DNA of 32,000 nt. It comes from Candidatus Saccharimonadota bacterium (GTDB lineage: Bacteria; Patescibacteriota; Gracilibacteria; Absconditabacterales; Absconditicoccaceae). The DNA is taken from assembly GCA_965231145.1 (NCBI GenBank), contig OZ246420.1:90001-122000 (forward strand), written 5' to 3'. This document shows, one piece after another, positions 60 through 30,762 of this stretch. Positions within the stretch are counted from its first letter, which is position 1, and each line of letters opens with the position of its first letter. The notes below the pieces were generated by a model, which saw only the letters and a list, made by a program, of their open reading frames with translations, was not told the origin of the DNA and ran no database searches. The translations under genes and the position numbers were made by a program.

Positions 60-348
60 CGTGTGCCCGTCATAATATAAAATAAAAAAATGTCCCTGAG
101 GAGAGGAACAAGGCATACAAAAAACATTGCAGTGCAATCTTATCTGTAGCCAATTACCTCGGTAGGAGATTGCTCATTAAATCAGCTAGAACGCTGATAC
201 CTACTGTCTTTGTATAATTGGTAACGATTCGTATTGCTCGAATCACAGATACTATACTAATTCACTATCTAAATACAAGAGAAAAAAGACACAAACACTA
301 GACAGAGATATAGGTCTTGCCTTGGTCTCTATCTAGAATCTCTGTTTA

Positions 349-5387: not shown

Positions 5388-6656
5388 CTATGAAAGGATG
5401 TGTAGCTCGTCTAAAAGTGTGCGATATTTGTCAAACTCCTCTCAAGTTCTTGACTTAATGAAATCTTTAACGATAATCTTTCGATCTATAAGGCTTTCTT
5501 GCAAGTTTTTCTGTGCAATCTCAAGTGTGAATGACATATCCGGAGAAAATGTTGTTTTTCTCTTTATGGCCCAGTCTTTCACAGTATGAAGAAGCTCCGG
5601 TTCGATATGCTTCTGGAGATCGTCATAGCCCAGTGATTCGGAAACGAGAGTGACGTGGGTGAGGGACGAGGGATAAGTGACGAGGGATACGTCTACTGAT
5701 CGGGTGCCACCGAAGTTTTCCAGTATTTTTATGTCAATCATTTTCTGGTGTTTTTCTATGGTAGCTTTTTCTATTTTTTCATCTGCAGAAAGAGTCAGGA
5801 CGATGTAAGGATTGATAGCTATTTGCTGTGCTTTTATGGTGTTAGTTTTCGCATCAACTTTATAGAGAAATTTGTGATGATCTTGTTCGAGAGGAGATGT
5901 ATATCGAACACTTCCCGCACAGAAATAATTTTTATATGCAAAAGGCATATGTATATGTCCGGAAATAAGTTCGATGTTTTTATTGTCCAAAAAAGCAGGA
6001 GAAAGCGCAATATCTTTGTAATCAAAGATGGCTTGCTGTCATGGGAATTTCGTATTTGCTATGTAGTAGTGGTGGATGATGGTAAGTTGTGGATATTTCT
6101 CAACGTATTGTTGTAATGTTGCATTTATAAGACCGCTTAAGCGTTCATTAGCATTTTTGGAGTTTAGTAGTTGAGTTATAGATGCATTGAATGCGTCTTT
6201 ACTTGAGGCGAGCAGAGACACATTCAACCCGGCCTTTTGCCCGGCAGGTGCGTCTGTACTCAGAGAGTTTATATGTTTAGAAAATGGGAAAAAGAGGATG
6301 TTTTTTCATTCTATCTCGTGCACTTCCGGCTCGGTAATAAAACGGATGATATTCTCTTTTTGCGGGAGAGCGTCTGCCATTTTTTTTCACTCTGCATAGA
6401 CGAACTGCTGACCAATCCAGTCGTGATTTCCGGCTAATACATACACATTTTTCCCACTTTTCCGAAGCGATAAAAAGAGGTCAAACAGGCGCGCAAGCGC
6501 CGTACGATCGTAGCTGAACATATACATATAATCGCCCAAAAAAATGATGTTTTTCTCATCATTGTTTTCTTGTGCGTACGATGCAATAGAGGCGATTATT
6601 GCATCGGCGTGTTTTGTTGTAATATGTATGTCACCGATTAATAACATAATTCTCAA
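5388..6656 (-). CDS. SbcD/Mre11-family metallophosphoesterase (putative DNA exonuclease subunit), 422 aa
   Basis: ORFs 6387..6656, 6039..6227 and 5442..5990 lie in one frame with 4 in-frame TGA (6387, 6306, 6039, 5442). The stop is TAG 5388..5390. Calcineurin-like phosphoesterase motifs occur in canonical order: GDIH, GDY, GNHD, HH, GHIH. The start is TTG 6654..6656 or ATG 6645..6647. Confidence 0.8.
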
Positions 6657-6887
6657 TGCGAAATGCTAAATTCTCAACAACTTTAAGACATAAAACTGAA
6701 AACTAAAATCTTTTCTAAGGATATCTTCATTAATGATATTACCTATAAAAAATTAAGACTTAAGTTTTTAGGTTTGAGTTGTTGTTGAGTTTATATGTGA
6801 ATAAGGAGGAGTTTGCAAAGGAAAAACAGTTGTTGAAAATTATGATCTGAATACTTATTATCTCGCTACAACAAAAAACACGACACT

Positions 6888-7535
6888 ATGCATGCACAAT
6901 ATTCAGATGACTACAACCAATTCTTGCTTTCTATTAACGCATTTGAGGTTAATTTTGATTTGCCTCATAAGCTCTCATCAGGCTTAAAGATTCCTTTCTA
7001 CTGTGATAATAGGCTTATCTTTTCGTACTTTCATGTCTATGAGTATGCGGTTCATGCTCTCAAAGATATGATACCAACTTATTTCCCGGAAATAGATGTT
7101 ATTGCTCCTGTTTCTACCGCTGGGCTGCCTCACGGATCAATATTGGGCTATCTTTTTATGAAGCCCCTTGTTTACATTCGTCCTGAAGCGAAAGCTTATG
7201 GTAAGCAAAAGCAAATAGAGGGCATATTTGAGTCAGGGAAAAGGGTGCTGATCGTAGAAGATCTGGTATTCACAGGAGAAGCAAGCTTACGGGCAGTGAG
7301 TGCTATAAGAGAAGCCGGCGGTGAAGTGGTTGGCGTCGTTAGCCTTTTCTCTTATGATCTTGCTATTGCTCAAGAGGCTTTCAAATCACACAATGTTGCG
7401 TTATGTCCTCTTACTACTTTTGCATCGCTTATCGCGACGGCTGAGGCTAAGGGAAATATTACTTCTGGGGAGAAATCTCATCTTATGGCGTGGCATAAAG
7501 ATCCATTTAAATGGAACACGCCTATGGCTGTATAA
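6888..7535 (+). CDS. pyrE: Orotate phosphoribosyltransferase, 215 aa
   Basis: The ORF is uninterrupted and ends at TAA 7533..7535. It carries the PRPP-binding motif VLIVEDLVFTGEAS. The N-terminal block LLSINAFEV...SGLKIPFYCDNRL resembles Bacillus-type PyrE. It contains no TGA codons. Confidence 0.9.
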   Translation: MHAQYSDDYNQFLLSINAFEVNFDLPHKLSSGLKIPFYCDNRLIFSYFHVYEYAVHALKDMIPTYFPEIDVIAPVSTAGLPHGSILGYLFMKPLVYIRPEAKAYGKQKQIEGIFESGKRVLIVEDLVFTGEASLRAVSAIREAGGEVVGVVSLFSYDLAIAQEAFKSHNVALCPLTTFASLIATAEAKGNITSGEKSHLMAWHKDPFKWNTPMAV

Positions 7536-7550
7536 AAAGTATATATAATT

Positions 7551-7582
7551 AAAAATCCGCAGTTTTTGCTGCGGATTTTTTT
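7551..7582. terminator. Bidirectional rho-independent terminator between convergent pyrE and gene 7592..9511
   Basis: The sequence is aaaaATCCGCAGtttttgCTGCGGATtttttt. It has a perfect 8-bp stem (7555..7562 with 7569..7576) and a 6-nt loop. An A-run lies on one side and a T-run on the other, so it works in both orientations. Confidence 0.85.
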
Positions 7583-7591
7583 GTCGTTAGA

Positions 7592-9511
7592 TTATTCGTC
7601 TTTCTCGAGTTCACCGTGCTCGATTTTGATCTGGAGTTGTTCAGAGGTCGCCTTAATGGTATTGAAGGTTTGTCCCATCTGTTTCCAGAGCATGGTGTTT
7701 TGTTCGATGAAGTGCTTTATGATGTTCATCATGTCGTTGTTCAGCGTCTTTGATCGATCATACGGAAGGCTATTGTCGATCGCTAATGTACGTGGAGAAC
7801 TGTCTTCGGTAGCGAGATTTGAGTTATTCTGCTTATCCTGGACAGGATTTGGGAGGACAAGGTATTTGTTTTTTTCCTGTCATATATTATTGTCATAATT
7901 TCCAGCGCGTGCGCGATCGGTTATCGCATCGTTTTGTGATTTTGTTTTCTGGATGTTCTCATCGACTACTTCTTTTTGCGCGTCAGAGTCATACATCGGC
8001 TTGAAGGCAAGGTTGACGTCATAAGAGACAAGTTTATTCATTTTCAGCTTATAGAGGCCAGTATCGAGAAATTCCTTTGGTTTGATATGTTTCATAAGCT
8101 GGCCTGAGTCTCTCATGGCGATCACGACTTTGTTGATTTCATCGATGATCTCTTCGATCGTCTTTAACTCTTTATCACTTTTCGCTACTTGTTCTTTTTT
8201 AACCGATATCTTACAGGTTTTACTTCCGAAAATGCCATTTGAGCTATATTGGGTGGTACAGTTACATTTTGTCTCACAGACCTCCTTATCGGCGTCGGGG
8301 AGGGATTCGCATTTTGCCATACACTTATTTGCTGCTTCGTTCATTGCCTCGCTGTTTTCTCCCTCGCCTCCTTCACCCAGACCTGATATTTGGTCTGCGA
8401 GGCTATCTCCTTCGCTATCGCCTTTCGATCCTTTCATAAACTGTTGGAGGGCGGACTGCACATTAATGTTTTTCATGAGCTGAGCGACCTTCTTTTCTGA
8501 CGCAAGGGCGTTCGTGGCTTGATTGCTACTCAGAGCGGTGCCACCATTGCTATTTGACGCTACAGACTCACCACCACACATAAGAGGGCTTGAGGTGCTG
8601 CTAGACCCCTTCTGAGAGGTTATTTGACTATTATATGTGCCTAATTGTTGGAGAGCAGAGATGTCGGTCTTATTTCTAGCTCCATTCTGCGAATTTAAAC
8701 CATTGGTTATCAGAGAAGAAATACCATTTTCTCATCCATTATTGCCTCATTCACTTCCTTCTCCTCATCCTATGTTATCCATATTGCCATTCTGATTGTT
8801 ACCAGAATCATAGAAACTTGTCTCCGGAGCCTTTTCGTTGGACTTGAATAAGATGTCACCGATTTTCTGGATATCGAGGAGAAGGTCAAATGGGCTGTCG
8901 TCAAGGGTGCCATTGAAAAAGATGTCATCGCCGTTGTTTACTGCGTCGAGGGTGTTTAGCTTGGCAGCTATGCTAAAACTGTTGTCAAACGCATCATAGA
9001 CAGTATTTCTACAAAGGGCGTATCTTTCCTGTGTATAGACTTCCTCGGTAGCATTTTTGCTGTTTTCGTCTGGCTGGACACACAGAGCTATCTTGGTACA
9101 ACTTTTGACTACTGCATCTCCGCTGATAGAAAATGCCTTCTTTTCGGTAGCTCCGGCAAACTTTGCGCTCAGCAGTGCATCGGTGCTTGCTATATTGGAA
9201 ATATCCTTTGCCTCGAGCGAGCAGCCATATTGGCTGTTAATATTTTGTGCAACCCCGCTAAATGTATCAAGATGGTTCTTGAGTGCATTTTTCCTTGCCA
9301 TCTTATGGGCGACATCATAGATATTTCCTTCTTCAGCGAGATTTTTCGTGAGAGAAGAGAAATCATTATCTTTGAGGTCTTCATAGGACTGCTGCATTTC
9401 TTCATCGACTGATTTTTCTTCACCATGCGTTGGTATGGAAAGCGCCAGGAAAATTCCTCCGAATAGGAGGATAAGGCTTTTGTATCCATATTTTCGCATT
9501 GCTATGCGCAT
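7592..9511 (-). CDS. Secreted protein of unknown function, 639 aa; last gene of the giant-protein operon
   Basis: ORFs 8765..9511 and 7880..8581 share a frame. The in-frame TGA are at 8765, 8747, 8732 and 7880, and the stop is TAA 7592..7594. The N-terminus MRIAMRKYGYKSLILLFGGIFLALSIPTHG is a signal peptide. The middle is Gly/Asn/Ser-rich (NIG-G-GEGSE-G-GNNG-G-ENG). There is a Cys block KCMAKCESLPDADKEVCETKCNC. I recognised no family. Confidence 0.85.
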
Positions 9512-9541
9512 AGTGAAAGCCGTGGGAAGGTAAAAGGTATG

Positions 9542-10696
9542 TTATTTGTCTCTTTGTTGGACATTTCTGAGTTTATAGTAGAGCTGATTGAGTGGTGTAT
9601 AGATACGGATAAGGGATTTTCTGAAATCCACGAGATCTTCATAGTATGCAAGTAGCCCTATATGTACTGGAAACGTGGTCTGCATATTTTGCAATGTCTT
9701 CTCCGTATAGAGGATGGCGTCAGCGCTTAGTGTGATCTCTTCGTTGAGACGTATCGTTTCCTGCTGTGCTTCCTGTGAGATATCGCTGAATGCGCGGAAT
9801 TCATTGTATTCGGGGTATTGGATGCTTTCCTGAGCAAGCGTAATAAAGAGTTTATAGAAGAGGAGTTCGTTATAGAGAAGGTTATGGAAGCTGTCCCATG
9901 CGAGCGTGTTTTGATTGTCGAATGAGCAGACAACGAACTGTTTTGCATCTTTTTCACACTCCTTTGACTGGTTTTTGAGGAGTTTTTCCGCGTCTATGTA
10001 TTTCGTCTTGTCTGACATTTCCTTCACGTTTTCTATGTACTCTTTGAGGACGTTTCTTGTTTCCGGGTGGTTACAGGCAGCTTCTTTATCAGTTCCTTCC
10101 TTGTCGCTCATATAAAGCGTATCCTTCTTCTTACAGATGCTTTCTCCCGAGCCGAAGTATGTATCAGAAAATGCTTTTATGGCCTCGTCGGTAGAATCAG
10201 ACTGATTACTATAAAGTTGTACCAGTTTCACCTTACTTATATCGTTGATAACGAGCGCAAAGAGCTTTGGAAGGAAGAGAGCAAAGTCACATGAAGTCAT
10301 GTCTCCATCTCGTTTGCAGTCTTCTACTTTAAGGTCTTCCCGGTCATATTCCTTGGTAAACTCTTTGATCTTTTCCATCTCGACGTCGCCTTTTGAACAG
10401 AGCAAGCCGACAAAAAACGATGATTGCGGATCATAATAACGTCATTTGGCGCTAGGATCTGGGAAGCCCTGAGACTTTGACATGGCTGTACAGTATGATT
10501 CGATGAGTCCTTTTCTGCTCTTATTTTCCTGGAGCGTAGAAGAGATGCTTTTCATCATGTTTGTCGTAAATCACTGCTTCGTCGTGTCAGCTGTATATGC
10601 CTCTTTGGAAGATTTCCAAAATATCAGTGCGATGATCGCACCGAGGCAAATGATACTGATAGACACTCTACGGAGTGATGTTGATGAATAACGCAT
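9542..10696 (-). CDS. N-terminally anchored Cys-rich protein of unknown function, 384 aa
   Basis: ATG 10694..10696 gives MRYSSTSLRRVSISIICLGAIIALIFW, a transmembrane anchor. The in-frame TGA are at 10571 and 10442, and the stop is TAA 9542..9544. The start lies 7 nt after the TAA of the upstream gene. Confidence 0.8.
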
Positions 10697-10703
10697 GACG
10701 TTT

Positions 10704-12149
10704 TTAATAACTACACTTTCCTCATACATTGGTACATTGATATTCGCAGGCTTCATTTAAGTTCTTGGTAATACTCTTGTCTTTTTGAGCATCGCCGAGC
10801 AGATTGGTCGTGTCGTGTACCATACTGCTGACCGCAGGGATCTTTTTAGTCACTACCAGCGGATCTGCAAGCACATGTTTCTGCCACGACGCCTTGCTTT
10901 GTGCGAGTGTCTCATCGACCGTACTATTGAGCTTTGCATAAAGATTTAACAGTGCGCGGTTTGTCGTCGAGTCTGGGGTAATGATGTCGAGCGGAGCAGG
11001 TTCCGGTGCAAATTGTACTTTCGTCATACTTGACGAATCTTTGCTATAGATCTCCTTCTGGCTATTGATCGTTGATGAAAGCCCATTTCCAAGGTTTGTT
11101 ACTTTGTTGGCAGCCTTTTCTGTATGCTCATCTCATTCTTTATCATTTTGACTCTCTGCTTCATCTCCACTTTCCTCTTCATCAATATTCTCATCTTCAT
11201 CTTTGGTCGGTGGTTTTTCAATACCACCCACTCACTCTAAGAGCTTATTTTGCTGTTTATTGAAACCAGGCTTTTCGCAGTCTAGTTCTGTCTGACTCGA
11301 GAGTGTACATTTCCATTTGCGAAGGGACTCTCTGAGCTTGTCTTTTAACTCATTGGTTTTTGGCTTATCTTCTTCATTGATACTGTCAATATCTTCCCCA
11401 TATTCCTCATACTCACTGTCGCACGAATTGAAACCTCTTGCGCACTTATACTCTTCCACGAGTTTCTTATAGTTGACGTCCGTCAACGTGATTCCCGGAT
11501 CCTCTTTGTATTGAGCGGTAAATGCCTTGAATGCATCGGTATAGCCTCCGGCGATAAATCTTTTATATGATTGATTGAGAGATCGAAGAGCGGCCATAAG
11601 TGTTCCTACTGCAGAAGAGGGAGCACCGGAGGCTTTCATAAATGAGGAGTCATCTTCTCCGTATTTTTTGAGAACTTCACTCACTTTTTCCTGATAGTCT
11701 TTTGGAGGAGTCGAATATAAGCCTGCTTCTCCCAGTTCGAATATAGCTTCAGCGATATCATTGTCTATCTTTTCCAGTTTTTTCCAGTCTCTCATGAGAG
11801 CTTTTGCATTTGTCATGACTTCCAGTTCTTCGCGAGTTGTAGAGCTCTCGAGTTCTGTGTGGATGGTTCCAAGAAGAACGGCATAGGTAAGAACATTTTT
11901 ACCCTTACTATTGAGTCTTTCTACGATATTCTGCAATGTCTGGTCTCACTCTCCGCTACCATCGGACTCTCATTGATTAGTCATGTTTTTGAGTGTTTCG
12001 AGCATTTCATTAGAAAATTTGATGTATTGCTCGATGATCTGAGAGGTGTTGGAACATGTTTCGCATGATTGACCTTCTGCAAAAGCGACACCGTAGAGGG
12101 TGCCTGCTAATCATAGAAGAACTCATATCTTGAGCAGTCGTTTTTTCAT
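10704..12149 (-). CDS. Secreted protein of unknown function with an acidic linker, 481 aa
   Basis: ORFs 11232..11936 and 10722..11027 share a frame, with 7 in-frame TGA (12123, 12111, 11970, 11946, 11232, 11133, 10722). ATG 12147..12149 gives MKKRLLKI-G-VLL-G-LAGTLYGVAFA|EGQ. The stop is TAA 10704..10706. There is an acidic stretch DEDENIDEEESGDEAESQNDKE. Confidence 0.85.
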
Positions 12150-12170
12150 CAATCTATGCGAGTATAAAAC

Positions 12171-13424
12171 TTAATCTAATCATTGGAGGAGTGATCCAAG
12201 GCCTCACAAGCTACCGCCTCAACCACCACCCATTCATCCAAAAAGGCCTCATAGCCCGGCTAGTCAACCTCAGCCGCCTTCATCATCGCCTCCGTCTTCG
12301 CTTCCATCTCATAGAGACGGGAGGAGTCATTTGAGCTTGCTGAGTCATCCAAGTTTTGAAGTCGCTCATCCGAGGCTACCTCATAGACCTTTTCCTCATT
12401 TGAGGAGTCATTTTAACTTGTCAAGTCCGCCTAGTTTGCCCAATGCTCACTCTCCATCTCCGTTACCTCCGAATGTATCGGTGAGGTTTGATAAACCACC
12501 TCAACCACCAGCTCCTCATCCTATGCCTCCAAATCCTCCCGGTGTTCCTCATGCGCCTCATAGTTTGCTTTCCGGTGTTGAACATTCTTTAGTGCCGGCT
12601 TGTATTTTACCATTTACTGCAGAGAAGGTCTCGTTGAAATGAGAGAATTTATCTACTAACACTCATCGTCTTGTTTCGAGCAGATAGCTCTGGGTGTAGG
12701 TTTTCCATGTGTCCTTCATAAAGGTGTTTGCTTTTCTTGCCATCAGTAGCTGTATGTATGTCATCTCTTCGTCGATACGTCTTCTTGAGAGATCTTCACA
12801 GGCCTTTTGGTCATAGCGAGAGTCCAGGTCGCTGGAAACGAGGAAAAATTTACGAGCGACACATGATGACTGAATACATACTGCGGTGTATCTTGCTGAA
12901 AGTGGAAGGGAATCATAGTTGCTAATTTCACAACTTTCATTGTCTACTTTAACTCAACGCCACTTTGCTGGCTCCCAGATCTCAACAAATTTCGTTTGTA
13001 TGCTGACAGGTAACTTTCCTGTTCCAACGTCTGTTCGTTCTTTGACAGCATCTTTCCATTCTTTTGCTTTTGAGTCTTCGCTTCCTTCTACTTTGTTATC
13101 CAGTTTAAAGAAGCCTTTACTGATCAACTGGTCGAAGGCATAAGGACTTTCAGGATTATCTCTGTTTTCTTGAGCGCTTTCACAGCCTTCAGTGAGGATT
13201 TCTTGCTGACAGCAATATGCCTTAAGATTATCCATAGCAGTGTGCATGTCGTCAGTGCTAAGAGGCTTGTCGCTTTTGAGTTTCAGATTGTCTATAGCAT
13301 CTTTTGGTTCATGTATCACCAAGCTACAATCATACAACGTATCCGCAAAAAGAGGGGCGCTCCGTATGGAGAGCGCTCCTATGATGGTCAAACCTATGAG
13401 CTTTCGGATAGCATTGTGTTTCAT
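12171..13424 (-). CDS. Secreted protein of unknown function with an extreme Gly-rich, TGA-dense C-terminal tail, 417 aa
   Basis: ATG 13422..13424 gives MKHNAIRKLIGLTIIGALSIRSAPLFA|DT. The standard-code ORF stops at TGA 12954, but the frame stays open to TAA 12171..12173, with 21 TGA in total. Without read-through there would be an ~800-nt gap in an otherwise tightly packed operon. Confidence 0.8.
12174..12563 (-). repeat. Gly-rich low-complexity tail (~130 codons) in which 19 codons are TGA, containing a duplicated KLGGL(D/S)KLKGLL unit
   Basis: With TGA read as G the tail reads KLGGAGGTPGGFGGIGGGAGGGGGLSNLTDTFGGNGDGEGALGKLGGLDKLKGLLKGGKGLGGSLGGATSKLGGLSKLKGLLPSLGDGSEDGGDDEGGGGGLAGLGGLFGGMGGGGGGSLGGLGSLLQGLD. 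The DNA repeat gaggagtcatttgagcttg (12321) recurs as gaggagtcattttaacttg (12402). Confidence 0.8.
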
Positions 13425-13429
13425 GTCTG

Positions 13430-16400
13430 CTATGGCAACGGCTGAGGGATAAAGGTAGTGTTTCCTATTTCTTTTCCTTGAAGATCATAGAAGGTGATAG
13501 TGATATTACGATCTTTATAAGAGTATGTTCATCGATATTGATTTTTATAGGTATCTGGTAGTCGGATGTCTCATTTCGTGCTTATATAGATGTGACAGGT
13601 ATCCGCCTGAGCAATACATGTGCCATTGCTAAATCCATGCGCATATCCATCTGCTACTTTTTGTGGCTTCCAGAGATTAGTATCGACGACTATAGTATTT
13701 AGCGCTGTCTTTCCTGCGTACGAGAGAGAGAATAGTACAATGCCTGTCCTTTTCTCTTTGATAAGTACACGAGGTGTATTTGCAGTAAACGAAACTACTG
13801 TATCTATAGACTCTTTAAAGTAGCTATCAATAGATATTTCACCACTTTCTTTATCTACTGCTCCAATACGTGTTCAGCTGCTATTGTGCAGGTCGATGAG
13901 TGCGCTTTTGACAAATACGCCTCATGAGAGTGACAGTTGATTGAATCCAAGAGGGAACTGAGATGTGATCATATTGTCTTTCCCTTTACCAGTTAATATA
14001 GATCGGATGCCATCTCTTTCTCTTTCAAAGAGTATGCTACTCTTATCTTGTCATACAGATACTGTTGTCTGTATAACGTTTTCATTATTCATCGGTTCAC
14101 TGATGTCAGTAATATTTACTTGAGGCTGTTTCCATTGTATCTTGATCGTATAAGTTGCTATATTGTCGTTTTGATCGATGGCATTGATTTGCCACGTCTC
14201 TACATCTTCACCACGATATGAGAGCGATGCGAGCGTGTTTGCTCAGGTGTCAGCTTGCGAACTTCCGTCAGCAAAGGTAATTGCATTGCCTTTGACGCCA
14301 CTGCTGTCACGCCATTGGACGACGACTCCATAGTCATTTCCTATAACAGGTGACAGCGTATATCATTGCCCATCGATAGTTTTGCTTTCTACTCTTATGA
14401 GGGCTACCGTTGGTGTTGGTCAGAGGTCATCACCTGCCAATTGAGAGCTGGCTACCTCCTGGTGTGATCGAGGAGAAGACTTTTCAAGCAGTGCTCATCT
14501 ATTGAGCGTTCTATATGAGAGCTTCGCAAGAGACATGTATTGCCGTTGTCTTGGAAGTCCGTCCAGAGAGACAGAGAGAGTTTCTTCTTCCGGATTGAAG
14601 TACTGAATGCTGAGTATGCTCTTGTCGTTTACTAAGTCGCTTACTCTCTTTTGTCCAAATATTTCATCGTAGAGGAAGACTCATTGGAGATCTGTATTTT
14701 CTGGTAAGATGAGTACATATTTTCTCGTATCTTTATTAGAGCGGTGCATATATCTTGCTTCTACAGAGTTATTAATTTGTAAGATATAGCCTTGTCTATT
14801 ATCGTTGTTCCAGCGAAGTTGTATACTGTCATATCTTTGTCCATCGAGTGAGAATGCTTGTGGTGCGCTCCTTTCTGACCATATTTTGAACATGCTTCAT
14901 CCTATGCTCAATCGCCCATCTCTTTCTACCGCCTTCGCAATATCTGCAGGCGAAGAGAATGTCGGAGTAACGTAGAGACGCGTGAATGTTGTACCGTTGT
15001 TCGCTGGCACGGGTTGGCTGTATTTTATCCGGATTTGTTTGTTGTCCCACATGATGATATCGTCTGTAGCATCCCCGTTGAGATCAGTGCGAGACTGATG
15101 TGCTTGGAGCGTTGCTATATTGTCTTGTCTGTCGACAACATTTACCATCTCACCAGACGTGTTTTTTACAAAGACACCCTGTATGTACTGGCTGATATCA
15201 GGCTGGATCGTGAGAGTGCTTGTTGTGCTATGTGCATGGGCGGTATGTGATGCGTCCATAGTGCTAGTTACTGCAGCAGCGAGAAGAGGTTTTTTCTCTG
15301 CGTCTTTCTCAGTGTTACTCACCATCTCCAGTCCGTTGTCTATAGTAGTAATAGTCTTTTCTACATAGCTTCTTGTTTCGTTGTATGTGAGGAGCGACAT
15401 ATTGAGATCGGTTGGCCCATAGGTGTCGAGCGCATTTGCAAAGCCAGTCATTACTTTCTTGTTGAGTTCAAGGTAGCTCTTCATCGGATTTGGCTCATCT
15501 TTAATTGCTTTGATGATAGATTTGTCTGCAGTAAAGAGCGAACTTCCGAGTGTTGATGACTCTGTATCACTACTTACCAGGGTTGTCTGTAGCGATGTAA
15601 CGAAAGAGTCATAGTCATGGTTGATCTTGTCCTGCATAGATGAGATATCATTTTTTATGCGGTCTATGCGAGACTGAGCCTGATGGTTGACAGCATCTAC
15701 ACCCTCGATATTAGCCGCTGTATTGCTTGGAGTTGAGAGGAGTGCAATCACATGACGAAGGGTTCTTTTTCTCTCTAATGATGTATCAGCTTCCAGTAGT
15801 GCGTGTGCCTGTGTAAGCAGGTCTGTGCGAGCTTGGGCAGCATTGTCATAGCTTAGATCCCAGAGATGAGGAGATGTGAAGCTCTGAAGTGTGTTGGTAA
15901 TGCCTCCAGCTGTGTTTCCTCATCCAGCGCTTTCATCACTGACGTTTTTGATGATAGGATTGCTGTCCTTGTTTACTTGCTCTGCGTACTCTTCGAGCGT
16001 CTTATAGATTTCATCAAAGTTAAGCTGCATATTAATATAGGTGTCGACATGTATATCTGACCCCTGAACTGGTGGTTTGATCTTTGTAACACTGATAGAG
16101 TCAAACGGCTCTACCTTCCAAGTTCTCTGTGTCAGTTGTTCTACTCTTGTTTTGACTCACTTTTCTCCGACCATGCCGATCCCTCATTTTACGATACAGA
16201 AGATCTTTGCGATATATTCAGCATATTGGAGAGTGGCGATAATCTCTGGTGTGATTTTTGGAATCTTTGGTGCAGGCGGAAGGTTTGGCATGTCGAGTTC
16301 CACATTTGGTGTGAATGAAGGAAGCTCAGGAAGTTTTGGTGGTTCAGGAATTTCTGGTGCGCTTGGGATCGTAACGCTCAGCTGTCACTGGACACCTGCG

Positions 16401-19400
16401 GATGGTGCTGGTGGGATGTCTGGAATTTGTGGGAGAGGAATAGGCTTTGGTACAAAATTGAATTTTGGTAGAAGTATATCCATACCCATATTTATATGAG
16501 ACAGGTCGATGAACAGATGTGGCATCCTAAATGGAGGTATTGGGAACACTGGTAATGGAATGCAGAGGATGCTGAGTGTGCATGCATAGAAATCGTAATT
16601 GTCTACCTTACACTTTCCGCATTTTGTTTTCCAATTTACTGAGTAGTCTATAAGAGCCTGCCATGTTTTGATAGAACTTATGTTTTGCGTCATACCATTG
16701 ACGTACTGGTCGAACTTTCTTGAGTTTTTCTGTAGCCATTCAGTCAGGTTGTTTGTGAACTTAGAGACAGTATCAGACGCTTCCGTCAAATATCTTTGTG
16801 AAGCTCCCAGCCATTTGTCTAGTTCTTGAGGGAACTCCTTATATTTATCGAGTATTTCAATGTTCTTTTTTACTGTTTTTATCAGCTCTTCGTTTTTGCT
16901 CGTTATACTTCCGCCGCCAGCGCTATTTCGATCCTGTGCGGTCTTCTCATTTCTTTGGAGCCAATTATTTAAGTATGCTTTATATCTGACGATATCTTCT
17001 TGGGCTATGAAAGGCACTTGTACATTGATGTTTTTTGTGCTGATATTGATAAGCGGTACGTTTTCAAAGAGTGTTGAGAGTGCATCAAAAGGATTAGAAA
17101 CATCATTGTCATTGTTTCTCATACCTTCTTGTGTGAAGAGTTTTTGTGATACGTCTTGTCTTGATGATGGAGTCGGTTGATTCTTTTCTTCTTCAGGTTC
17201 CTCGTCGTAGAGCGCTCTTATCTTCTTCAGTGATACATCATCAAATCCCTTAAAGAGCGATGACATCTCAGGCATGTATACGTTGACTGAAACGGTTGTA
17301 AGATTGTTAATGATATACCTTATTTGTGGATCGAGCCGGTTCTTCATAAGACATTTGACGAGTCCTTTTACGTCTCATCCCTGTACTTCAAGTTTGACTT
17401 GTTCTCCTACTTTGAGTGTCTCACTATCCTGATTTCCTCCTCCTTCCCCACCTTCGCTTATATCTTCTATGGTGGGAGTAGTATTGAAATTAACAGAGCG
17501 CCCGTCGTATGAGCCGTCATTTTCTCCCTCAGCTGAAACCGATGGAATAACTTCTTTTATCTTACCCATGATGTCATCCATCATACCTCCGCCTTGTCCT
17601 TGACCTCATACAAGATTTGAAATCATCTTAAACGGAGAACCAGATTTTCATCATTTTAGTTGAGGTGTGCTGCATGCTCCTCCTTCTGCTGCGTCATATT
17701 GCCGCTGTTCAAGAGCGGGTCTTGCGTCTCCTGGAGTAATCTGTGCTTCATCTTTTTTCGCTGTTACCACACAATTTCCCGAGATATGTTTTACTGGATT
17801 TTGTAGGCTTGCTCCGGCTGCGTATGAGCCATAACACATAGCAACACCTTCCTTATTTGTTATAGCTGGTGAGTCATATACTCTTACATTTGATGGATAA
17901 CTACCTCCGCCCGCCCAGTAGAAACCATCCGTAGGAGACTTCTGACCATATGGAGCAGGTACGTCATATGCTCCAGGGCGGATAGTTCCTGGATAGAAGA
18001 GAGATGGAAGACCTTTGTCGTCAGTCAATTTACATCAGAAAACATTGTAGGTTCCTGGAGAGAGGAATGCTACATTAAATGGCGCTTGTGTTCATTGTTG
18101 AGCCATAGTTTTTTTGTATCCACCTTTTTCAGCTTGGAATCCCTTACAAAATCCTTGCACAGCTCCATCTACTTGTCTTTCTGTATCTTGAGTCATGCTT
18201 GTCAGTTGTGGATTGTTGCTACTCATATCAAGACTACCATTTTCAGAGAGGGACTTGTTGTCCCACTTTTCAAGTATCTGATCCATGCCAGGCATCTTGC
18301 TGATATCCGGATTGCTACCTTGTGATGCACCTTTGATCTTGCTTTGTATGTCGGTGAGCTTTGATGTCAGCGCAGAACTTTGTTGCTTTTGCATTTCTTG
18401 CATCTTTGGTGCAAGGTCGGTAAACGACTGGGTAAAGTTTTTTGTTCCATTTGATGTAAACTGTTCAAATCATTGCTGGCAGCTATCGGTAGAATGTGTT
18501 TTTATGTCAGTTGCCTGATCTCCGTTAATGTTACCGAGAGAAATATGTACTAATTTTGGTGCCTTATATTTGAGAACTTCGCTGAACGTTACGCTTTGTC
18601 ATCCTTTAAGTGAAATATTATCTATCATGTACTGATAGCCATTTTCCATATTCCAGTTTACGGTTGAGCCTGCTGGTAGACTTCCTTTGTTCCAGCTTGG
18701 TATTTCTCCTTCACTATTTTTACTAATTCTCCATGGTCACTTGATGTCATGCAGATAGGTAACCATTGTATCGCTTTTTGCTTCAATGGTTGTCTTCACG
18801 CGTACTTCTTCACCATCTACCAATGGTCCTGAAGATGGTTTTACTCTTTCATATTGTTTATATGTTACCACAGGAGATGTCTCGTCCAGCATGGTGCCTG
18901 GCATATATGCTATGGTTTCCAGGCTGTTAGCCGGTTCGTATGACGGTAAGGTGCTGATAGGTGATGCAGAATATTGCATGAGAGTCGGTAGCCCACTATC
19001 TATCATGCTTTGTATATTAAATCCAGAGAAGTCACTTTCTGTTCCCTTGAGGAGATTTTGTATCTGTGGATCAGCAGCAAGAGGGCTATCAGGGCTTTCT
19101 TCATTTACTTCTGGAGGAAGAGAAAGTCACTGCCAGTGAACCAGGCTGTTGTCGTATATCTTTTCATTTTCACTCAAAGTGACGCCATATGATTTGACTA
19201 ATTTAATATGATCTTCTTGTCTTGTCTTTCGCTCGCTATCACAGGTAACCTTATTTTTTGAAATGTAATTATCTCCTGCAGAAGTGCGTCCACCATAGAA
19301 AATCTTAATGTTGCCTGCGGTATCATTTGTAACGATATCGACCTTATTGTCTCCGTCCATATCATGCACAAAAAACTCATATGCATGAGCGATGCTTTGA

Positions 19401-22400
19401 TCTCAACCTGGTATATCTAAACAGACTTGCTTTCCATCGACATCTACAGTTCAACCATTGTTTTTATAGACTCTCAGTTTATCATGAGATGTCTGGATGA
19501 TGATATCCTCATAGCTATCTCCATTGGCATCGCCAGCAAAGGCATTTTTGATGCCATCATCAATAACCATAAGCATTCACAAGTCCTTATAAGGATCTTG
19601 CCCGCCTTTGTTTTTCAGAATCCTTGCAGATCAGTCGGAATATGTTACCAACAGATCCTTTTGTCCATCTTTGTCTACATCAAGAGGAATAGTTTTTGAG
19701 ATGCTTTTCTCTGTTTCTGTGAAAACTGTTTTTCATTGACCTCCATCGTAATTTGTTCCCGCAATTGTTGTGTTTTCGCTTTGACGTCCAAGCAGAGGAT
19801 CGCCAAGCGTAATAAGGAAAGGAGACGCTCCATGCTGAGTAGCTTTTCCTACTTTGTCTCCTTCGGCAAAAGCGGTTGCTGCATGAAAAGTGTTTTTCCG
19901 GTTTGTATTGGTATCAGTATCGACAGATTGCTCAATACCTCACTTCCATGGAGAAGATGAACCAAGAGGCACAGCATTTTTATCATAGATCATCCATCCG
20001 CGGCTGCTATTTGTTGATCCACCAAGCCAGATTGATTCAAGGCCGATGCTGTCTTCTAGATGAATATTACTGGTGTTTATAGTTGCGTGGATGCGTAGTG
20101 TTCCTACTATTTTTCCTTGTATTTTTACATTCCATACAGTATCCCCATTTGTATATTGATTGCTGTTTACTATCTCAGCGCTATTACCTGTAGATGAGTT
20201 TATGGACCATACAGGCGATCCATTGATCACGATAGTATTGTTTATGATCTCGTTGGTTTCAATAACGCTGTCTGTTTGGCGAGCCGTATAGAGAAGAGTG
20301 TTTTCGCCAAATGATTCATCTGCTGTTCCGGCTCTGAGAGTTAATGAGCTCGCGCTTCCTAATGCAATATATCCTTTTGTATTGAGATCATATGTCAACA
20401 CATTGTCTCTTTTGGTGAGACGTATATCTGATGCATCATAGATCTGACCATTGTTGTTGATACGAAGCAGTGCAGGGAGGATATTGTTTGGGTTGGTGAG
20501 AAGTGTTGTTACGGCAAGTGCTTTATCTGACTTTGTGAGGATGTTCTGCGCTTCATTTGATTGCTGTGAGAAGTAGTTCCATCTATTGCCTCGGTCGCTT
20601 CCAGCAAGTATCATATACATAGCATTGAGATTGTCTGTTTTCCAGAAAGGAGAAAGTATCGTTATCTTTTTTGCATCAGGCAACTGTGCCTCTGGTGCTA
20701 CTCATGCAAGAGTAGCATAAATATATTGTGTTCCTGCGGCTTTCTCGCTGCTAAGAGTAAATGGAGCGCTTCCGTTGGTTGCCGTAGTTACTTGCCCACT
20801 TGATGATCCATTTATCTTGATACCACCAATCGTATGGAGGTTGATGCTTACAGGAGCATCAATAGGGTTGTTCCATCTATCATATGCAAACACCTGTCCG
20901 CTGGTGTTTTTTTCAGCCAAGAAACTATCGGGTGCTTGGATGCCCACACGATATGGCTTTGCAGGATGGATAGTCACAGGTATAGTTTTTAGAGGAAGGC
21001 CTGGAATTTCTAGCGTGAGAGTGTCTTGTCCTGCTTGAAATGAAGGATAAAGGATAATCGTAGCAACGCCACCTTTGATGGTAAATGAAGATTGCTCTGA
21101 AAATTCTTTTGCGGTTACTCTTTGACCGTTAAGTGTATAGCTACTTTCTTTTACTCTTCCTGGAAGGAGGAGTCACTGAGTACTCTTGATGACACCATGT
21201 GTTTCTAAGGGTTTCTTATCTGGCGTAGTAAGTGTCAGTACGATCCTTGGAACCGCATTTTCCTGTAGCTGGTCAACGCCGTTTTGATTGCGGAAAAAAG
21301 CTGATGTGCTTTCAGGAAGAGTGATGTCTATGTGGGATGTATTTACTGTATTATGCTTCACCTCGAGGATTCATTCGGTGAGCGAGATTGTTTTTCTGAT
21401 AGGCGAGAGAGAGTCAGAAGAAATTGGTGTCAGTAGCAGCTCAACTTCTGCAGACGCAGAAGGAACGTCGCTCAAATCCAAGACGAACATCTCATTTTTA
21501 TCAAAACGTTGGAGTTCTATACCTGTCGTGATATTGCCGTTGGTAATGATTTTCCCTTGAGAAGAAGAGAGACGGAAGGTGTTTGTACTTTGTTCAACAG
21601 CATTTCAGTATGCATCATATCACATCACTGAGAAAGGCATCTCAGATCTTTTGAGTATTTTATCTGTCGGCGTAATAATAGTCGCAGTGACAAGAGGCCC
21701 AGCGATAACAGGAACGATAAGTTTTTTCTCTGTACAACGAACGTTTTGACAGATCTTTACTGTGAGGATACTTGCTCCAATATTTTTGCCCGCAAGAGCT
21801 ACTTTCAATGTACGAGGGGTCTTGTAAAGATCTCCCTGGAATGCATACTCAGCATTACACACATTTCTTCCTTCGATGATCGGACAGTTTTCTCCCGTTC
21901 CTGAGATACGGATATTAAGATTGCCGCTGTCCTTTAAACTTGCGATCGTCAGAGTTGCTCCACTTGTGTTGTCTACACTGAGAGTATTCTTATTGAGTCT
22001 CGCTGTAAGAGTGTTATCAAACGCCGCAATCAATGTTTGTGCTTCATCAGAAAGAGCCCCAAGAGATGAGTTTGTAAGAGACCTCCAAGTTGGGTTAAGT
22101 TCTTCTACGTTATCTCCTAGGGTGACATCGGTGTCTTTAAATTGCTGTGATATAAGTACAGGTCATTTTGCATTTGAGAAATTTACTTTCACTACATCAG
22201 AAATAGTTTGTTCCTGCATAGATTTCATCCAGCATCCTAGAGAAGCTGGCCATTGAAGCAGAGGTGTTGTGCCATCTGTATCAATACCACATTTTTTATC
22301 TCTTTCTGTTGCCTGCATATCAAGAGCCGCATTGACCGCGTCAGTGCTTGAAATCTCTGCCGTTGCTGCGAGTTTCTGTTGTTCTATATTGTTGATAACA

Positions 22401-25111
22401 GCAGGAGCTATTGTATTTTTCAGAGCATCATTACCATCTGAGTTGATATAGACAAGCTCATAACCACTTGCCTGATATCATGGGACAGATCCCATAGAAG
22501 GATTGTCTTGTTTCGTGATATAATTTTTCGTCACGTTGGCTATTTTCTTGTTAACGTCAAATGAGTGTTCGTTGTTCTTCAGATCGGTAAGAAGATCTGT
22601 TGAAGATGGTTTTTCAGATCGTCCAAGATTTTGCCAATAAAGTACATCAGCGATCGCTTTGATCGTCTCTTCACCGAGGGCGGTTATGAAAAAGTCTTCA
22701 GGAAGAAGAGCGTATGAGCGACTCTTAGGTGTCGCGTATGGATTGACTACAGCCAGTTTGTCAAATGCGATGCTCTTTGGCGCATAGTGTGTCGCAGCTG
22801 CGCTATTTTCTGTTGAGAGAGTTACATTTATAGCACTTACTTTCTGCTTGAGATATGCCTTTATACTCTCTGTTATCTCCTGAGGTGATTGGAGGGTTAG
22901 TTTTTCTCATTGTTTCTTATAGACAGAAACATTGTAGATATTTGGATAGTCAAATTTTACTGTACCACCACCTATACCTTTAAATGCAACAAACCTTGCG
23001 CTATCGATAGGTCTGTCAGCAGTAAGAGGACTCATGCCTTTCACTTCTTCAGGTGTCGGTGATGAGTGCGACTCAAGAGTGTCTATTGTTTTGTACACAT
23101 AATTCTCACCACACTCATGCGTACTTGTGTTGGTGTTTGTATTTGTCACAAAAATATGATCATTGTAATCAGCAGTTGCGACCTTAGAGAAATATTCAAC
23201 TTCTATAGGGGCCTTGATCGGATGACCATTGTATCGATTTTCATTGACCTCTCCTGGAGGTACTATTTCTCAACATATTACTCGTGGGGCAATGCGAAAC
23301 TGTTGTGTTCTATGTAGGAGTGAGTTATTGAGTTCATCAAGAAAGAAAATATCTGTATTCATTTTTTTAAGAGTGAGCTTTGATCCCGCTATGTCGTAGA
23401 CGGGTCATCCAATGGTTGTATCAAAGCGCGGATTCCATGCCATCTTTGGATCGTTTTGCTTGAGCTGGAGCGTGTTCCCATCTACATTGAGAGGAGTCAT
23501 GCCTCCTCGGTATTTGTTTACAAAATCATCAAGTGTTTGTCTGTCGTTACACTTTCTTGCATTGTAGAGTTCGATATCTTTAGATATAAGTTCGATATTA
23601 TAACCTCTAGAGCTTTCTACCTGTCTTGAAGAGATACCATATGAAGCACCTATGGATCTTGCTGTATAGTCCAATGGTATATCGTCCTGCTGACCTTGAG
23701 TAGCATAATTATATGATGTCAGGTTTTGTCGACTTCATATGTTTTTCCATGTACCACGATAGATAGAGATGTCATTGGTAGATGTTACATCAAAAGCACT
23801 CTTTCCAAAATAGAAATTTTCATATCTTCCCACGAGTTTCTTTGGTACAAAATCCGGTGGTAAAACTGGTGGTACAGGAACACACTCATACTCTTCGTAG
23901 ATTAGTGGAATAGGAATATGAAGAGCATAGTTACCTGTTTGTAGTTTTTCGTAGAGAGCCTTTTCAAGTACGCTATTTGCATCGAACAGCGCCGTGCTTG
24001 TTAAGGTGTCTTTCACCACAGTTTTTTTGATATGACTATCAACGTTGGCGGCGTTCCATCTTCCACCTGCAATAATGTTTTGATCGATGTTTGTAAGATA
24101 CTCGGGTGCGAAGAGAGAAGTATATGGCTGTACGAGAGAAAGCAACGCTGTTCACATCATAAGGGTTGGTATCTTTGCGGTCTCGTTTCCTAATTTCTCA
24201 AGCGTTTCAGCGCTATCCGCGGCGATAGCTGTTAATCACTTTTTCCATTTGTCTATTTCTGCTTTATAAGTACTTCATTCAGTTGATAACTGTGAGTAGG
24301 ATTCTTCATTTGGAGAAAGCTTTTGAGCGTCATCACCTATAAGCGATAGGGCGTTATTATTTGCAGCGTCTTTGAAGTAGTCGAATATAAGATTTGTATA
24401 CCTGTGATAAGTGATGTCTTCGTGAAAAAGAAAGTTGTTAATATAACCAGAGAGAAACTGATCAGCAAAATATTTTTTTAATCCAATAAAATCATCGTAC
24501 CGTATTTTGGTAGATGTGTAATTTATTGGATTTTGTTTGTAGTTTCTCAGCTTGTCGAAAAACTTAGTGTATTGATCATCCTGATCTTCAAAGTTGATCA
24601 TGCTTTGCCATATATCTGCCTTGTGATCGCCATCGTCCTCAGTAACAAAATAGGTAGAAGCTGGATCGTATACATAACTAGGTTTCTCAAGGTCTGTATA
24701 TGGGTATATGCTTGGATAGATATAGCTATTTTCACGTATAACCGGCAATGGGATATCTCCTATGAGGATAGTTCCTATAAGAGAAGAAGGGTTTTTTTGG
24801 TTTCCTTCTTGGTAAAGATTTTCTAATATCTTCCATATGTCATAGGCCTGAAAATTGTTTTTATCGATAGGCAAGAGGATGGCTTTTGTATTGTTACTTT
24901 GCGACTGGAGATATTCCTGAGCATACCAATTTATGTTTTCTTTATGCTTATCGTAAATGTTCTTCTCTACGAATACGGCAATGATATTTTCGTGTATTTC
25001 TTCTGCAGCATATACGTTGCTAGAAAAGCCAAAAATCCACTGTGTGAACGAGTGGGAAAAGAAGTACACGCAAAGCAATATACCTATGGCTGTTTTTGTT
25101 TTCAACGACAT
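13430..25111 (-). CDS. Giant secreted/anchored multidomain surface protein, 3,893 aa, with FG-GAP/integrin-like and Ig-like repeats and Pro-rich and Gly-rich linkers
   Basis: Sixteen listed minus-strand ORFs from 14681..14893 to 24275..25132 all lie in the same frame. I translated every gap between them and the whole of 13430..14681. There are 45 in-frame TGA and no TAA/TAG until TAG 13430..13432. ATG 25109..25111 gives MSLKTKTAIGILLCVYFFSHSFTQWIFGFSSNVYA|AEE. An in-frame TAG lies upstream at 25145..25147. Confidence 0.85.
19270..19800 (-). other. FG-GAP/VCBS-like (integrin alpha beta-propeller type) repeats inside the giant protein
   Basis: Three Ca-binding-type loops occur: DVDKDGQKD (19655..19681), GDANGDSYED (19505..19534) and HDMDGDNKVD (19337..19363). 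They are spaced ~50-57 aa apart. Each is followed by a hydrophobic strand and then an N-x-G turn (ILKNKGG, VYKNNG-G, KIFYGG). Confidence 0.6.
20702..21730 (-). other. Tandem bacterial Ig-like (Big_1/invasin-type) repeats inside the giant protein (tentative)
   Basis: The repeats read ...PFSVM-G-YDAY-G-NAVEQSTNTFRLSSSQGKI... and ...GQVFAYDRWNNPIDAPVSINLHTIGGIKINGSSSGQVTTATNGSAPFTLSSEKAAGTQYIYATLA. They follow the pattern V-x-a-x-D-x-y-G-N-P-v ... T-d-x-n-G-x-A ... G ... v-x-A typical of these domains. Confidence 0.5.
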
Positions 25112-25224
25112 GGCGAACACCCTGATAATCAATAAGATAACCGGCTATTTATTCTTTCTATGCAAATATAAATTGATTGCAAGATCTTGCGAAGCCAATA
25201 CCATTTAAATGATATATAATATAT

Positions 25225-25254
25225 AAAAAAGTCTCCTTATAGAGAGGAGACTTT
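25225..25254 (-). terminator. Rho-independent terminator of gene 25276..26961, separating it from the giant-protein operon
   Basis: The minus-strand RNA reads aaaGUCUCC-ucucuauaa-GGAGACuuu, followed by more U (plus-strand a-run 25225..25230). The GC core is 6 bp and extends to 9 bp with A:U pairs. It lies 22 nt downstream of TAA 25276..25278. Confidence 0.8.
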
Positions 25255-25275
25255 CTTGAAAAGAAAATAAGTGTT

Positions 25276-30000: not shown

Positions 30001-30762
30001 TGTAAGTGGAGTGTCGCGCCCTACCGCAACTCCCTCGAAACATGAGTCTCCGTCAAATCACATCCCTGGCGTATAACTTTGACCAAGTCATCCCATCCCT
30101 TGTTGCGTAGGGTCTTCACATCCTTCGATTTTGCTGTAGTAGATATCGAAAGGAGTAATAGACGAAATTGTTCGTAATTCTCCAGAACCCGCGCTAAATG
30201 AACCACCTGTTCCACTACAATCAGGAAGTCCAAGACTGATCCATCATACAAATGTGGTTCAAGGAGTACACATGGGACTTGGTAGTATGCTTACAAGCGG
30301 AGCTGGTGTACAGATCGCTGTTCATCAAGAAAATCACGCTATCGCTTCTCCTGCAGGACATGAACCATCGCTAAATCAACCAACTCCGCCTCAGAGAGAA
30401 TATGATAAAATGTCAAATGCAAACATCTCTGTCGTGAGGCTTCACGAGGCAATGCGAGATCCATCTATCGTATCTGTACGAGAAAAACGTCCGTCCGGAG
30501 CGATGAGAATGTCTTCTGTGCCTACAGCGTCAGGAAGCTTTATAAGATGGTCATTCGTTCCTGAAAACTCTACGAGAGCACTGCTTGATGCGTCTCCATC
30601 TGTAGTGATAAGGAGTTTTTGAAAATAGGGAATATCCCTCAGGATGCTTGTATCAAGAGTAAGAGCACTTACGCTTTCTGAAATAAGAGCTGCCGCTCAG
30701 AGGCTAAGAGCTAGCGTGACAAGCCGCTTTTTGTTTCACTGCTTTTGTTCCATAACGAACAT
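27013..30762 (-). CDS. Secreted tail-fibre-like protein with ~6 Cys-motif modules and a C-terminal peptidase-S74 chaperone domain, ~1,249 aa; paralog of 25276..26961
   Basis: I translated the frame codon by codon from 30786 to 27013. It contains 42 in-frame TGA and no TAA/TAG between TAA 30784..30786 (upstream bound) and TAA 27013..27015. Starting at ATG 30760..30762 or 30751..30753 gives MEQKQ-G-NKKRLVTLALSL-G-AAALISESVSA, a signal peptide. It shares SLTTEM, CPAGE and VGIGTDTPGATLHVNGDILTD with the paralog. It also has SDRNVKKNI...GYTFKWI...VGLVAQEI...VEYPNLLAGIISALKEL and a similar C-terminal end (FFRDNGI versus FFSINGI). Confidence 0.8.
27370..27717 (-). other. Peptidase_S74-type chaperone domain of gene 27013..30762, interrupted by a Gln/Gly insert
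   Basis: The signature matches that at 25620..25875. An extra segment, SSRDIG-G-TPSSPAQGGL-G-QTQQ-G-QQQ-G-QQ-G-QGD, lies between the AQE and YPN blocks. Confidence 0.65.
28330..29844 (-). repeat. Six protein-level modules (~80-115 aa period), each carrying a C-x-C-(D/E/F)-x-(D/N/E)-(P)-x(4-9)-C motif
   Basis: The six motifs are TPCNCFNPDPAYPGKC (29803..29844), PMCACETEDPTTPGKC (29491..29532), FRCPCDTNMYATDAAC (29206..29247), PRCACDLDPDSFDC (28921..28956), PRCDCDVDITTQNC (28576..28611) and VNCSCDLDPMTEDC (28330..28365). Confidence 0.7.

Follow-up and report, generated by a model that had tools for sequence, protein, structure and literature searches.

Several bacterial operons are known in which the gene of a giant adhesin stands together with accessory genes, among them sprC-sprD-sprB-sprF of Flavobacterium, siiABCDEF of SPI-4 (Salmonella pathogenicity island 4), and gli123-gli349-gli521-p42 of Mycoplasma mobile; all of them serve contact with surfaces or cells. 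Here we describe a block of five genes, G1 to G5, in a stretch of 32,000 nucleotides (hereafter the window: positions 90,001 to 122,000 of contig OZ246420.1, assembly GCA_965231145.1) from a bacterium labelled Candidatus Saccharimonadota and placed by GTDB among the Absconditabacterales of the Gracilibacteria. Compared with these operons, the block likewise combines an exported surface protein of several thousand residues (G1) with a few smaller accessory proteins, some of them membrane proteins, but it has no homologous component, no type I or type IX secretion machinery and no ATPase, and its conserved triad G3-G4-G5 also exists without the giant gene; unlike SiiE and SprB, moreover, G1 is non-repetitive. 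We read G1–G5 as a single transcription unit for a lineage-specific, Sec-exported and disulfide-stabilised envelope complex of UGA-recoded bacteria belonging to the candidate phyla radiation (CPR), namely the Absconditabacterales and their relatives within the class Gracilibacteria, with host-cell contact as its most likely role; we give this reading a probability of about one half.

The block also differs from the repetitive giant adhesins, whether exported by type I secretion with BIg or RTX repeats (SiiE, LapA) or anchored through LPXTG (Ebh): G1 has no tandem repeats, the syntenic loci contain no ABC transporter or other ATPase gene, and there is no LPXTG signal. Like integrin-alpha/FG-GAP (VCBS-type) propellers, G1 has a region (amino acids (aa) ~1800–1940) that matches PF13517 above the gathering score and carries DxDxDG-type loops, yet the propeller makes up less than 7% of the protein. 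This FG-GAP repeat is the only family membership that holds; by sequence, fold and architecture we rate the parts and their arrangement as lying outside every known kind of system.

Both Absconditabacteria and Gracilibacteria are ultra-small and have a recoded genome; the junction machinery of epibiotic predators is, according to a 2025 review, still unknown (PMC12428579). The co-cultured species of the clade are Candidatus Absconditicoccus praedator and Vampirococcus lugosii. For Vampirococcus, a role in attachment is presumed for giant membrane proteins, and a protein of 4,163 aa (VAMP_16_20, annotated 'hypothetical protein') is the longest of that genome (PMC8080830). Its clade is the same, and its size is similar to that of G1 in Ca. 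A. praedator (4,169 aa); it is a probable counterpart of G1. The giants are listed singly in that report, which describes no operon, no G2–G5 partners and no synteny (PMC8080830), and no published description of the gene cluster was found in the literature searched. At least six orphan protein families can be defined here (G2, G3, G4, G5, most of G1, and a family of membrane proteins, gA/gB, encoded nearby). The block is a concrete, testable candidate for a contact apparatus, because its giant product is probably the largest protein encoded in such genomes, its gene order is kept across the clade, it is under strong purifying selection, all of its products are exported and lack known relatives, and one of them (G4) has a confident structural model without neighbours.

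Anatomy of the operon and its products

Read with TGA as a sense codon, the minus strand of the window holds long genes, including an open reading frame (ORF) of 3,904 codons; under the standard bacterial code it falls into fragments. G1 to G5 are co-directional on this strand and separated by 5, 21, 7 and 30 nt. The original prediction, made from the sequence without database searches, had described five packed genes with these limits and gaps, and both were reproduced exactly. The operon and the features within it are:

13430..25111, minus strand: G1, 3,893 aa, start at 25111; 45 in-frame TGA and 19 CGA/CGG codons
12171..13424, minus strand: G2, 417 aa, start at 13424; exported, Cys-rich
10704..12149, minus strand: G3, 481 aa, start at 12149; exported; part of the core triad
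9542..10696, minus strand: G4, 384 aa, start at 10696; membrane-anchored, all-alpha; part of the core triad
7592..9511, minus strand: G5, 639 aa, start at 9511; exported; part of the core triad
25225..25257, minus strand: upstream intrinsic terminator between the neighbouring gene U1 and G1; 13-bp stem and U-run, -15.7 kcal/mol
7551..7580, bidirectional: closing intrinsic terminator; 13-bp stem, -16.6 kcal/mol
25165..25193, minus strand: promoter-like site TTCGCA-17-TATATT between the upstream terminator and the G1 start; candidate
13357..13376, minus strand: terminator-like hairpin and U-run within G2, -15.6 kcal/mol
19112..19864, minus strand: FG-GAP (integrin-alpha-type) repeat zone, G1 aa ~1750–2000
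15962..16714, minus strand: most conserved module of G1, aa ~2800–3050
12174..12572, minus strand: Gly-rich tail of G2, aa ~285–417

Both bounding terminators that had been proposed were found. The upstream one ends the U1 transcript and marks the upstream boundary of the operon, and the closing one is common to the end of G5 and the convergent gene pyrE. The promoter-like site is only a candidate, because such sites are not enriched (35 observed against 45 ± 6.5 expected in shuffles). The hairpin within G2 lies 48 nt into the gene, right after the G1 stop, and equals the flanking terminators in stability, so that partial attenuation within the operon is possible; it may act as an intra-operon attenuator or as a stabiliser of the mRNA. 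In the closest relative (locus L018, 79% identical) its stem is kept and the loop differs. Among other relatives, stable hairpins stand at the G1/G2 junction in L005, L013 and L020, and none in L002, L006, L007, L008 and L021; the hairpins that lie within G4 and G5 are weak and lack conservation.

Every product begins with a hydrophobic segment, as the signal peptides or anchors claimed for all five would have it: there is one such N-terminal segment in each of G2–G5, and the N-terminus of G1 is signal-like, its Kyte-Doolittle maximum over 12 residues being 2.36. The four smaller products are also rich in cysteine: there are 9 residues each in G2, G3 and G4, 11 in G5 and 27 in the giant G1, against 1–2 in the cytoplasmic and membrane neighbours gC and gA. 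Nearly all cysteines of G2–G5 are conserved at ≥0.8 across orthologs of 25–55% identity, and this conservation points to structural disulfides and hence supports an extracytoplasmic location.

Protein searches used translations under genetic code 25, in which 29 tryptophan residues were entered as arginine (see the last section). G2–G5 gave no match in Pfam, NCBIfam or PHROGs, nor was there a meaningful match among PDB sequences, whether the query was G1, G2, G3, G5 or gC or a profile of G4 or of gA. The expectation that no product would show an enzyme motif and that the small proteins would fall outside housekeeping families agrees with these results. G2, G3, G4 and G5 are also mutually unrelated, with pairwise hhalign probabilities among G3, G4 and G5 of at most 0.8%.

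G4 is the best characterised of the four small proteins. Its family comprises 432 representative clusters (E ≤1e-3), almost all of them full-length single-domain proteins. G4 itself has an N-terminal transmembrane (TM) helix, 6–8 conserved cysteines, and a long C-terminal helix that is nearly invariant (FPIHIGLLAYYED..FRK..YTPIHQLYYKLRNVQ). An AlphaFold2 model built from 24 sequences is confident, with a predicted local distance difference test (pLDDT) of 83.5 and a predicted template modelling score (pTM) of 0.78; it places the TM helix at residues 2–27, followed by an all-alpha ectodomain whose C-terminal helix spans 76 residues (307–382). Foldseek found no neighbour of this model in the PDB (best E 0.59, TM-score ≤0.17; none at E ≤1e-3) and none in BFVD.

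The other three small proteins have recognisable parts. In G2, cleavage of the signal peptide probably occurs after ..LFA and exposes a conserved mature N-terminus, D.LYDC; a core of aa 1–283 is followed by the Gly-rich tail of ~130 residues, which consists of GGxGG and KLGGL repeats, contains 19 of the 21 TGA (Gly) codons of the gene, and is limited to the window and L018, other orthologs being 265–300 aa long. In G3, a signal peptide (..AFA/EG) precedes a mature N-terminus that bears a conserved CxxC; the protein also contains an acidic linker, and its C-terminal motif C..QC.N.GGKC is invariant. G5 consists of a conserved N-domain with four invariant cysteines, a Gly/Ser/Asn-rich linker, and a Cys-cluster with a helical C-domain; the homolog search with G5 was swamped by this low-complexity linker and returned two matches.

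In G1, the only Pfam match is FG-GAP_3 (PF13517; 34.5 bits against a cut-off of 26.9), in two stretches of which the best is aa 1811–1871, and the orthologs carry it likewise. A regular expression located a DxDxDG-type loop, DVDKDGQKD, at aa 1811, and DANGDSYED and DMDGDNKVD are visible in the sequence. The FG-GAP zone (0.44–0.55 identity) is one of the two best conserved parts of the protein. The other, at aa ~2800–3050 (0.47–0.59 identity), combines a cluster of cysteines (KCGKCK..C) with a Pro-rich hydrophobic stretch (FYACTLSILCIPLPVFPIPPF), a conserved segment rich in Pro and one that is amphipathic, a hydrophobic segment lying at aa 2841–2859; we propose that the module may be a membrane or partner-docking site. 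The remaining ~3,600 residues have no match in Pfam or among PDB sequences. Length is conserved, at 3,893, 3,898 and 4,169 aa. Self-BLAST gave no internal repeats in G1, Pfam no Big, Cadherin or Ig-type domain, and no LPXTG-like sortase motif occurs in G1–G5; sortase anchoring and tandem repeats of G1 were rejected on these grounds.

Gene order and selection in related genomes

Loci of relatives (L002 and so on) were collected through a G4 homolog search (25 unannotated proteins), their genomic contexts, scans of genomes and metagenomes, and local annotation under code 25; the scans used one strict peptide pattern, YTP[ILF][HDQ]QLYY, so that the family is under-sampled and the collection is not exhaustive. 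Conservation of gene order in other recoded genomes was the decisive check named with the original prediction, and its outcome was positive: the order is kept in ~18 independent loci of CPR bacteria in which TGA is recoded, one of them in the complete genome of Ca. Absconditicoccus praedator. The arrangements are:

G1-G2-G3-G4-G5-Metallophos-gB-gA, all co-directional: L002 (complete Ca. Absconditicoccus praedator), L005, L006, L020, L013, L015
G1–G5, then unrelated housekeeping genes: L007, L008
G1–G5, with the contig ending within G5: L021, L018
G2–G5, then unrelated genes, with the upstream contig end in G2: L023
G3-G4-G5 only, without an adjacent giant gene: L009, L012, L014, L026
G4-G5 only: L010
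Metallophos-gB-gA alone: L016, L017

Almost every informative locus has G4 next to G5; in at least 15 loci G3 stands before them, and in at least 11 G1-G2 stand before the triad. Many in-frame TGA codons occur in every locus. G3-G4-G5 form the invariant core. The ancestral array was longer than the operon of the window and comprised eight genes, continuing past G5 into a metallophosphoesterase gene (Metallophos), gB and gA; the gap between G5 and Metallophos is 0–45 nt in five loci and ~490 nt in L006. Downstream neighbours in other loci include housekeeping genes, for example MurC-like and RecA genes.

Between the window and L018 (79% nucleotide identity), the proportions of nonsynonymous and synonymous differences in G1–G5 are 0.06–0.12 (pN) and 0.59–0.74 (pS). 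The ratio of nonsynonymous to synonymous substitution rates (dN/dS) is 0.02–0.08 for all five genes, with G4 at 0.020 and dS near saturation. G1–G5 are therefore under strong purifying selection, and pN far below pS, together with the recurring order in many genomes, indicates that the genes are real. The compactness of the unit, the conserved order and the selection acting on all five genes bear out the view that the block is not a collection of unrelated genes.

In the window the three companion genes are separated from G5 by pyrE:

6795..7535, plus strand: pyrE (orotate phosphoribosyltransferase), interrupting the ancestral junction of G5 and Metallophos
5388..6647, minus strand: gC, 419 aa; cytoplasmic divergent metallophosphoesterase, the first companion gene after G5 in most relatives
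2368..5313, minus strand: gB, 981 aa; polytopic, 8 TM segments, Pro/Thr-rich tail
349..2328, minus strand: gA, 659 aa; polytopic, 7 TM segments, orphan family
75-230, minus strand: ribosomal protein L10 leader, directly downstream of gA; Rfam RF00557 matches with 45.2 bits (gathering score 44)

In the place of the G5–Metallophos junction of relatives, pyrE with the bidirectional terminator is a lineage-specific insertion that split the ancestral eight-gene array. The true start of pyrE is probably the ATG at 6888, because homology begins near aa 42. gA and gB are paralogs by hhalign, lie as a pair 2.3 kb downstream of the operon, and have no match in Pfam or NCBIfam. Beyond the L10 leader comes the rplJ-rplL operon, which adjoins the region in L005, L016 and L017 likewise; this adjacency, shared with relatives, places the locus in the core chromosome and not on a mobile element.

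Two observations concern relatives only. In Ca. Absconditicoccus praedator (L002, 18571-21114) gA is followed by a third member of the gA/gB family, gB-like and 847 aa long, so that this family of polytopic proteins appears to be expanded in that genome. In loci with G3-G4-G5 only, a conserved protein of 213–237 aa follows G5 (L009 13061-13714, L012 10963-11604, L026 9553-10266); a TM segment lies at its N-terminus (MFD+ILVFLL...), the window lacks this protein, and a role as a further partner in the triad-only lineage is possible.

Proposed role and alternative explanations

In the proposed envelope complex, G3, G4 and G5 would be the ancient and invariant core. G4 would be held in the cytoplasmic membrane by its uncleaved N-terminal helix and would present an all-alpha ectodomain whose long, near-invariant C-terminal helix could be a docking surface. 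G2 and G3 would be cleaved, secreted partners, and G2, G3 and G5 would be disulfide-bonded. G1 would be the large extracellular component mounted on this core, perhaps through its module at aa 2800–3050, and would expose the Ca2+-type FG-GAP propeller. In most relatives the cytoplasmic metallophosphoesterase and gB/gA would probably supply a membrane base or a functionally coupled module. We infer that the five proteins assemble physically and that the assembly serves attachment to a host, possibly also organisation of the feeding junction; we put host contact first among the possible roles because those clade members that are in culture are epibiotic predators, which need a stable junction with their prey.

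Several points weigh against this proposal. Some clade members are not known to be predators. Both the strong purifying selection and the near-invariant C-terminus of G4 are what one typically sees in housekeeping machinery, and less so in host-specific adhesins. Several genomes have the triad without a neighbouring giant gene, and L016 and L017 have Metallophos-gB-gA alone, so the modules are separable; within the operon, the stable G2 hairpin could uncouple the expression of G1 from that of G2–G5. The predicted structures cover G4 and gA.

A first alternative is a housekeeping scaffold for building or organising the bacterium's own envelope, for example in wall or S-layer anchoring, cell shape or cohesion of daughter cells, with no specific role in host contact. 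The very low dN/dS (0.020 for G4), the large and uniform G4 family, the conserved position beside rplJ/rplL, the fixed length and non-repetitive sequence of G1, and the housekeeping neighbours found downstream in other loci would all suit such a scaffold. On the other hand, FG-GAP propellers typically bind ligands or cells, some lineages keep the triad and dispense with G1-G2, and no wall-synthesis or S-layer domain was detected with Pfam or NCBIfam; we consider the scaffold unlikely, though an alternative to be taken seriously. A second alternative is a membrane-active translocon or feeding pore in which G3–G5 would insert into the prey envelope and form a conduit, in the manner of tripartite alpha-pore-forming toxins or injectisome translocators, while G1 holds the cells together. 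The three-gene exported core is conserved independently of G1, G4 is all-alpha with long helices, and cultured clade members prey epibiotically on cells (PMC8080830, PMC12428579). The resemblance to tripartite toxins (Hbl, Nhe, AhlABC, SmhABC; ClyA fold) extends to three adjacent genes with exported, largely helical products of ~350–650 aa, but G3, G4 and G5 are not homologous to one another and have no Bacillus_HBL Pfam match, neither ClyA nor Hbl nor any other pore-former is a neighbour of the G4 model, and a TM anchor in the producer membrane with conserved disulfides suits a resident protein better than a released toxin. A ClyA-type tripartite toxin was rejected on the lack of mutual homology and the lack of a fold neighbour for G4, and we regard the wider translocon idea as improbable. 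The adhesin fibre suggested in the original prediction, taken here in its classical form with G1 as filamentous stalk and G2–G5 as tip, anchoring or chaperone subunits, fared no better and strikes us as somewhat more doubtful still. G1 is indeed giant, exported, provided with FG-GAP repeats and putatively co-transcribed with small exported proteins, and analogous operons encode SprB, SiiE and Gli349; it lacks, however, tandem repeats, Ig-type Pfam domains and LPXTG, no locus has a dedicated secretion ATPase, length and sequence are conserved where a fibre would vary, and the small proteins persist without the giant gene.

Two further alternatives start from neighbouring genes, and to each we give very little credence. 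The pair of membrane proteins ~2 kb downstream had been called VirB6-like, from which G1–G5 could be the surface components of an apparatus akin to type IV secretion or conjugation, with gA/gB as its channel. The pair is there, multi-TM and at 2.3 kb, and like VirB6/TrbL it is polytopic with a large extramembrane tail; the VirB6 likeness itself found no support in the sequence searches. None of 35 gA family members matched the TrbL/VirB6 Pfam model, the gA profile found no VirB6 among PDB sequences, and the model of the gA family, of moderate quality (pLDDT 70.3), had no significant structural neighbour. In the fold search with this moderate model, R388 TrwI/VirB6 (8rt9_F) had the highest target-normalised TM-score (0.30) among the long alignments listed, but ranked 26th with E = 3 and a match probability of 0.12. 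Neither VirB4, VirD4, a relaxase nor any other ATPase gene occurs within 10 kb in ~20 loci, and the position beside rplJ is core chromosomal. A VirB6 identity of gA/gB is accordingly not supported by Pfam, PDB profile search or fold search. The genes immediately upstream, U1 and U2, suggested instead a domesticated phage tail or tailocin-like module. The description of these two genes as tail-fibre-like stood in part: they match many tail-fibre PHROGs and Pfam Peptidase_S74, but only through their C-terminal S74 chaperone region. U1 and G1 are divided by a terminator, genes for a capsid, terminase, sheath or baseplate are lacking, and IMG/VR contigs contain no relative of G4. A phage origin was rejected because G2–G5 have no PHROG match (the scan covered G2–G5, U1 and U2) and G4 has none in IMG/VR or BFVD.

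The envelope complex with a role in host contact, as set out above, can also be framed more boldly: G3-G4-G5, usually with G1-G2 and gB/gA, would be an unrecognised envelope apparatus exclusive to UGA-recoded CPR bacteria that builds the epibiont–host junction, an ATPase-less contact or feeding device without homology to known secretion, pilus or adhesion systems. In this full form we hold the claim to be speculative and rather unlikely.

Upstream genes and the genetic code

Upstream of the operon lie:

25276-26961, minus strand: U1, 561 aa; signal peptide; Pfam Peptidase_S74
27013-30762, minus strand: U2, 1,249 aa; signal peptide; 36 Cys and 42 TGA codons

Given their non-phage chromosomal context, U1 and U2 look like cellular fibre-like surface proteins with a phage-type folding module. 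A secreted S8 protease had also been noted upstream, and its family assignment was borne out: the product of gE is a Peptidase_S8 protein by Pfam.

The reading of the window under code 25 was right for TGA and incomplete for other codons. Opposite the 108 TGA codons of the window, orthologs show Gly encoded by GGN in 43% of cases and never Trp. In the alignment columns of the window's CGA and CGG codons, orthologs have TGG in 20–36%, CGA/CGG in 22%, codons for hydrophobic residues in 19–26% and other Arg codons in 2%; control columns (CGT, CGC, AGA, AGG) have 20–38% Arg codons and essentially no TGG. The genome thus appears to read CGA/CGG as Trp besides UGA as Gly, in agreement with the reassignment of CGA/CGG to Trp predicted for Absconditabacteria by Shulgina and Eddy (PMC8629427); this code marks the organism as a CPR bacterium of Absconditabacterales type. 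The eight genes contain 28 CGA and 12 CGG codons, and G1–G5 have 29 CGA/CGG codons against 50 TGG, for example at aa 7 and 21 of G2 (about 13404-13406 and 13362-13364) and aa 119 and 129 of G4. Translation table 25 therefore misreads 29 residues in G1–G5, two of them within the G2 signal peptide; such genomes need translation with UGA as Gly and CGA/CGG as Trp, or their proteins are misread.

Related mistranslation is visible in public records. In the complete genome CP060225.1 ('Candidatus Peribacteria bacterium HK-STAS-PATE-9'; L003/L014), the NCBI gene calls are fragmented, as if made under code 11, and the same DNA read with TGA as sense yields intact G3-, G4- and G5-like ORFs. Metagenome-assembled genomes labelled 'Peribacteria' (L007–L010) are also rich in in-frame TGA codons, and for that reason either their label or their translation table looks wrong.

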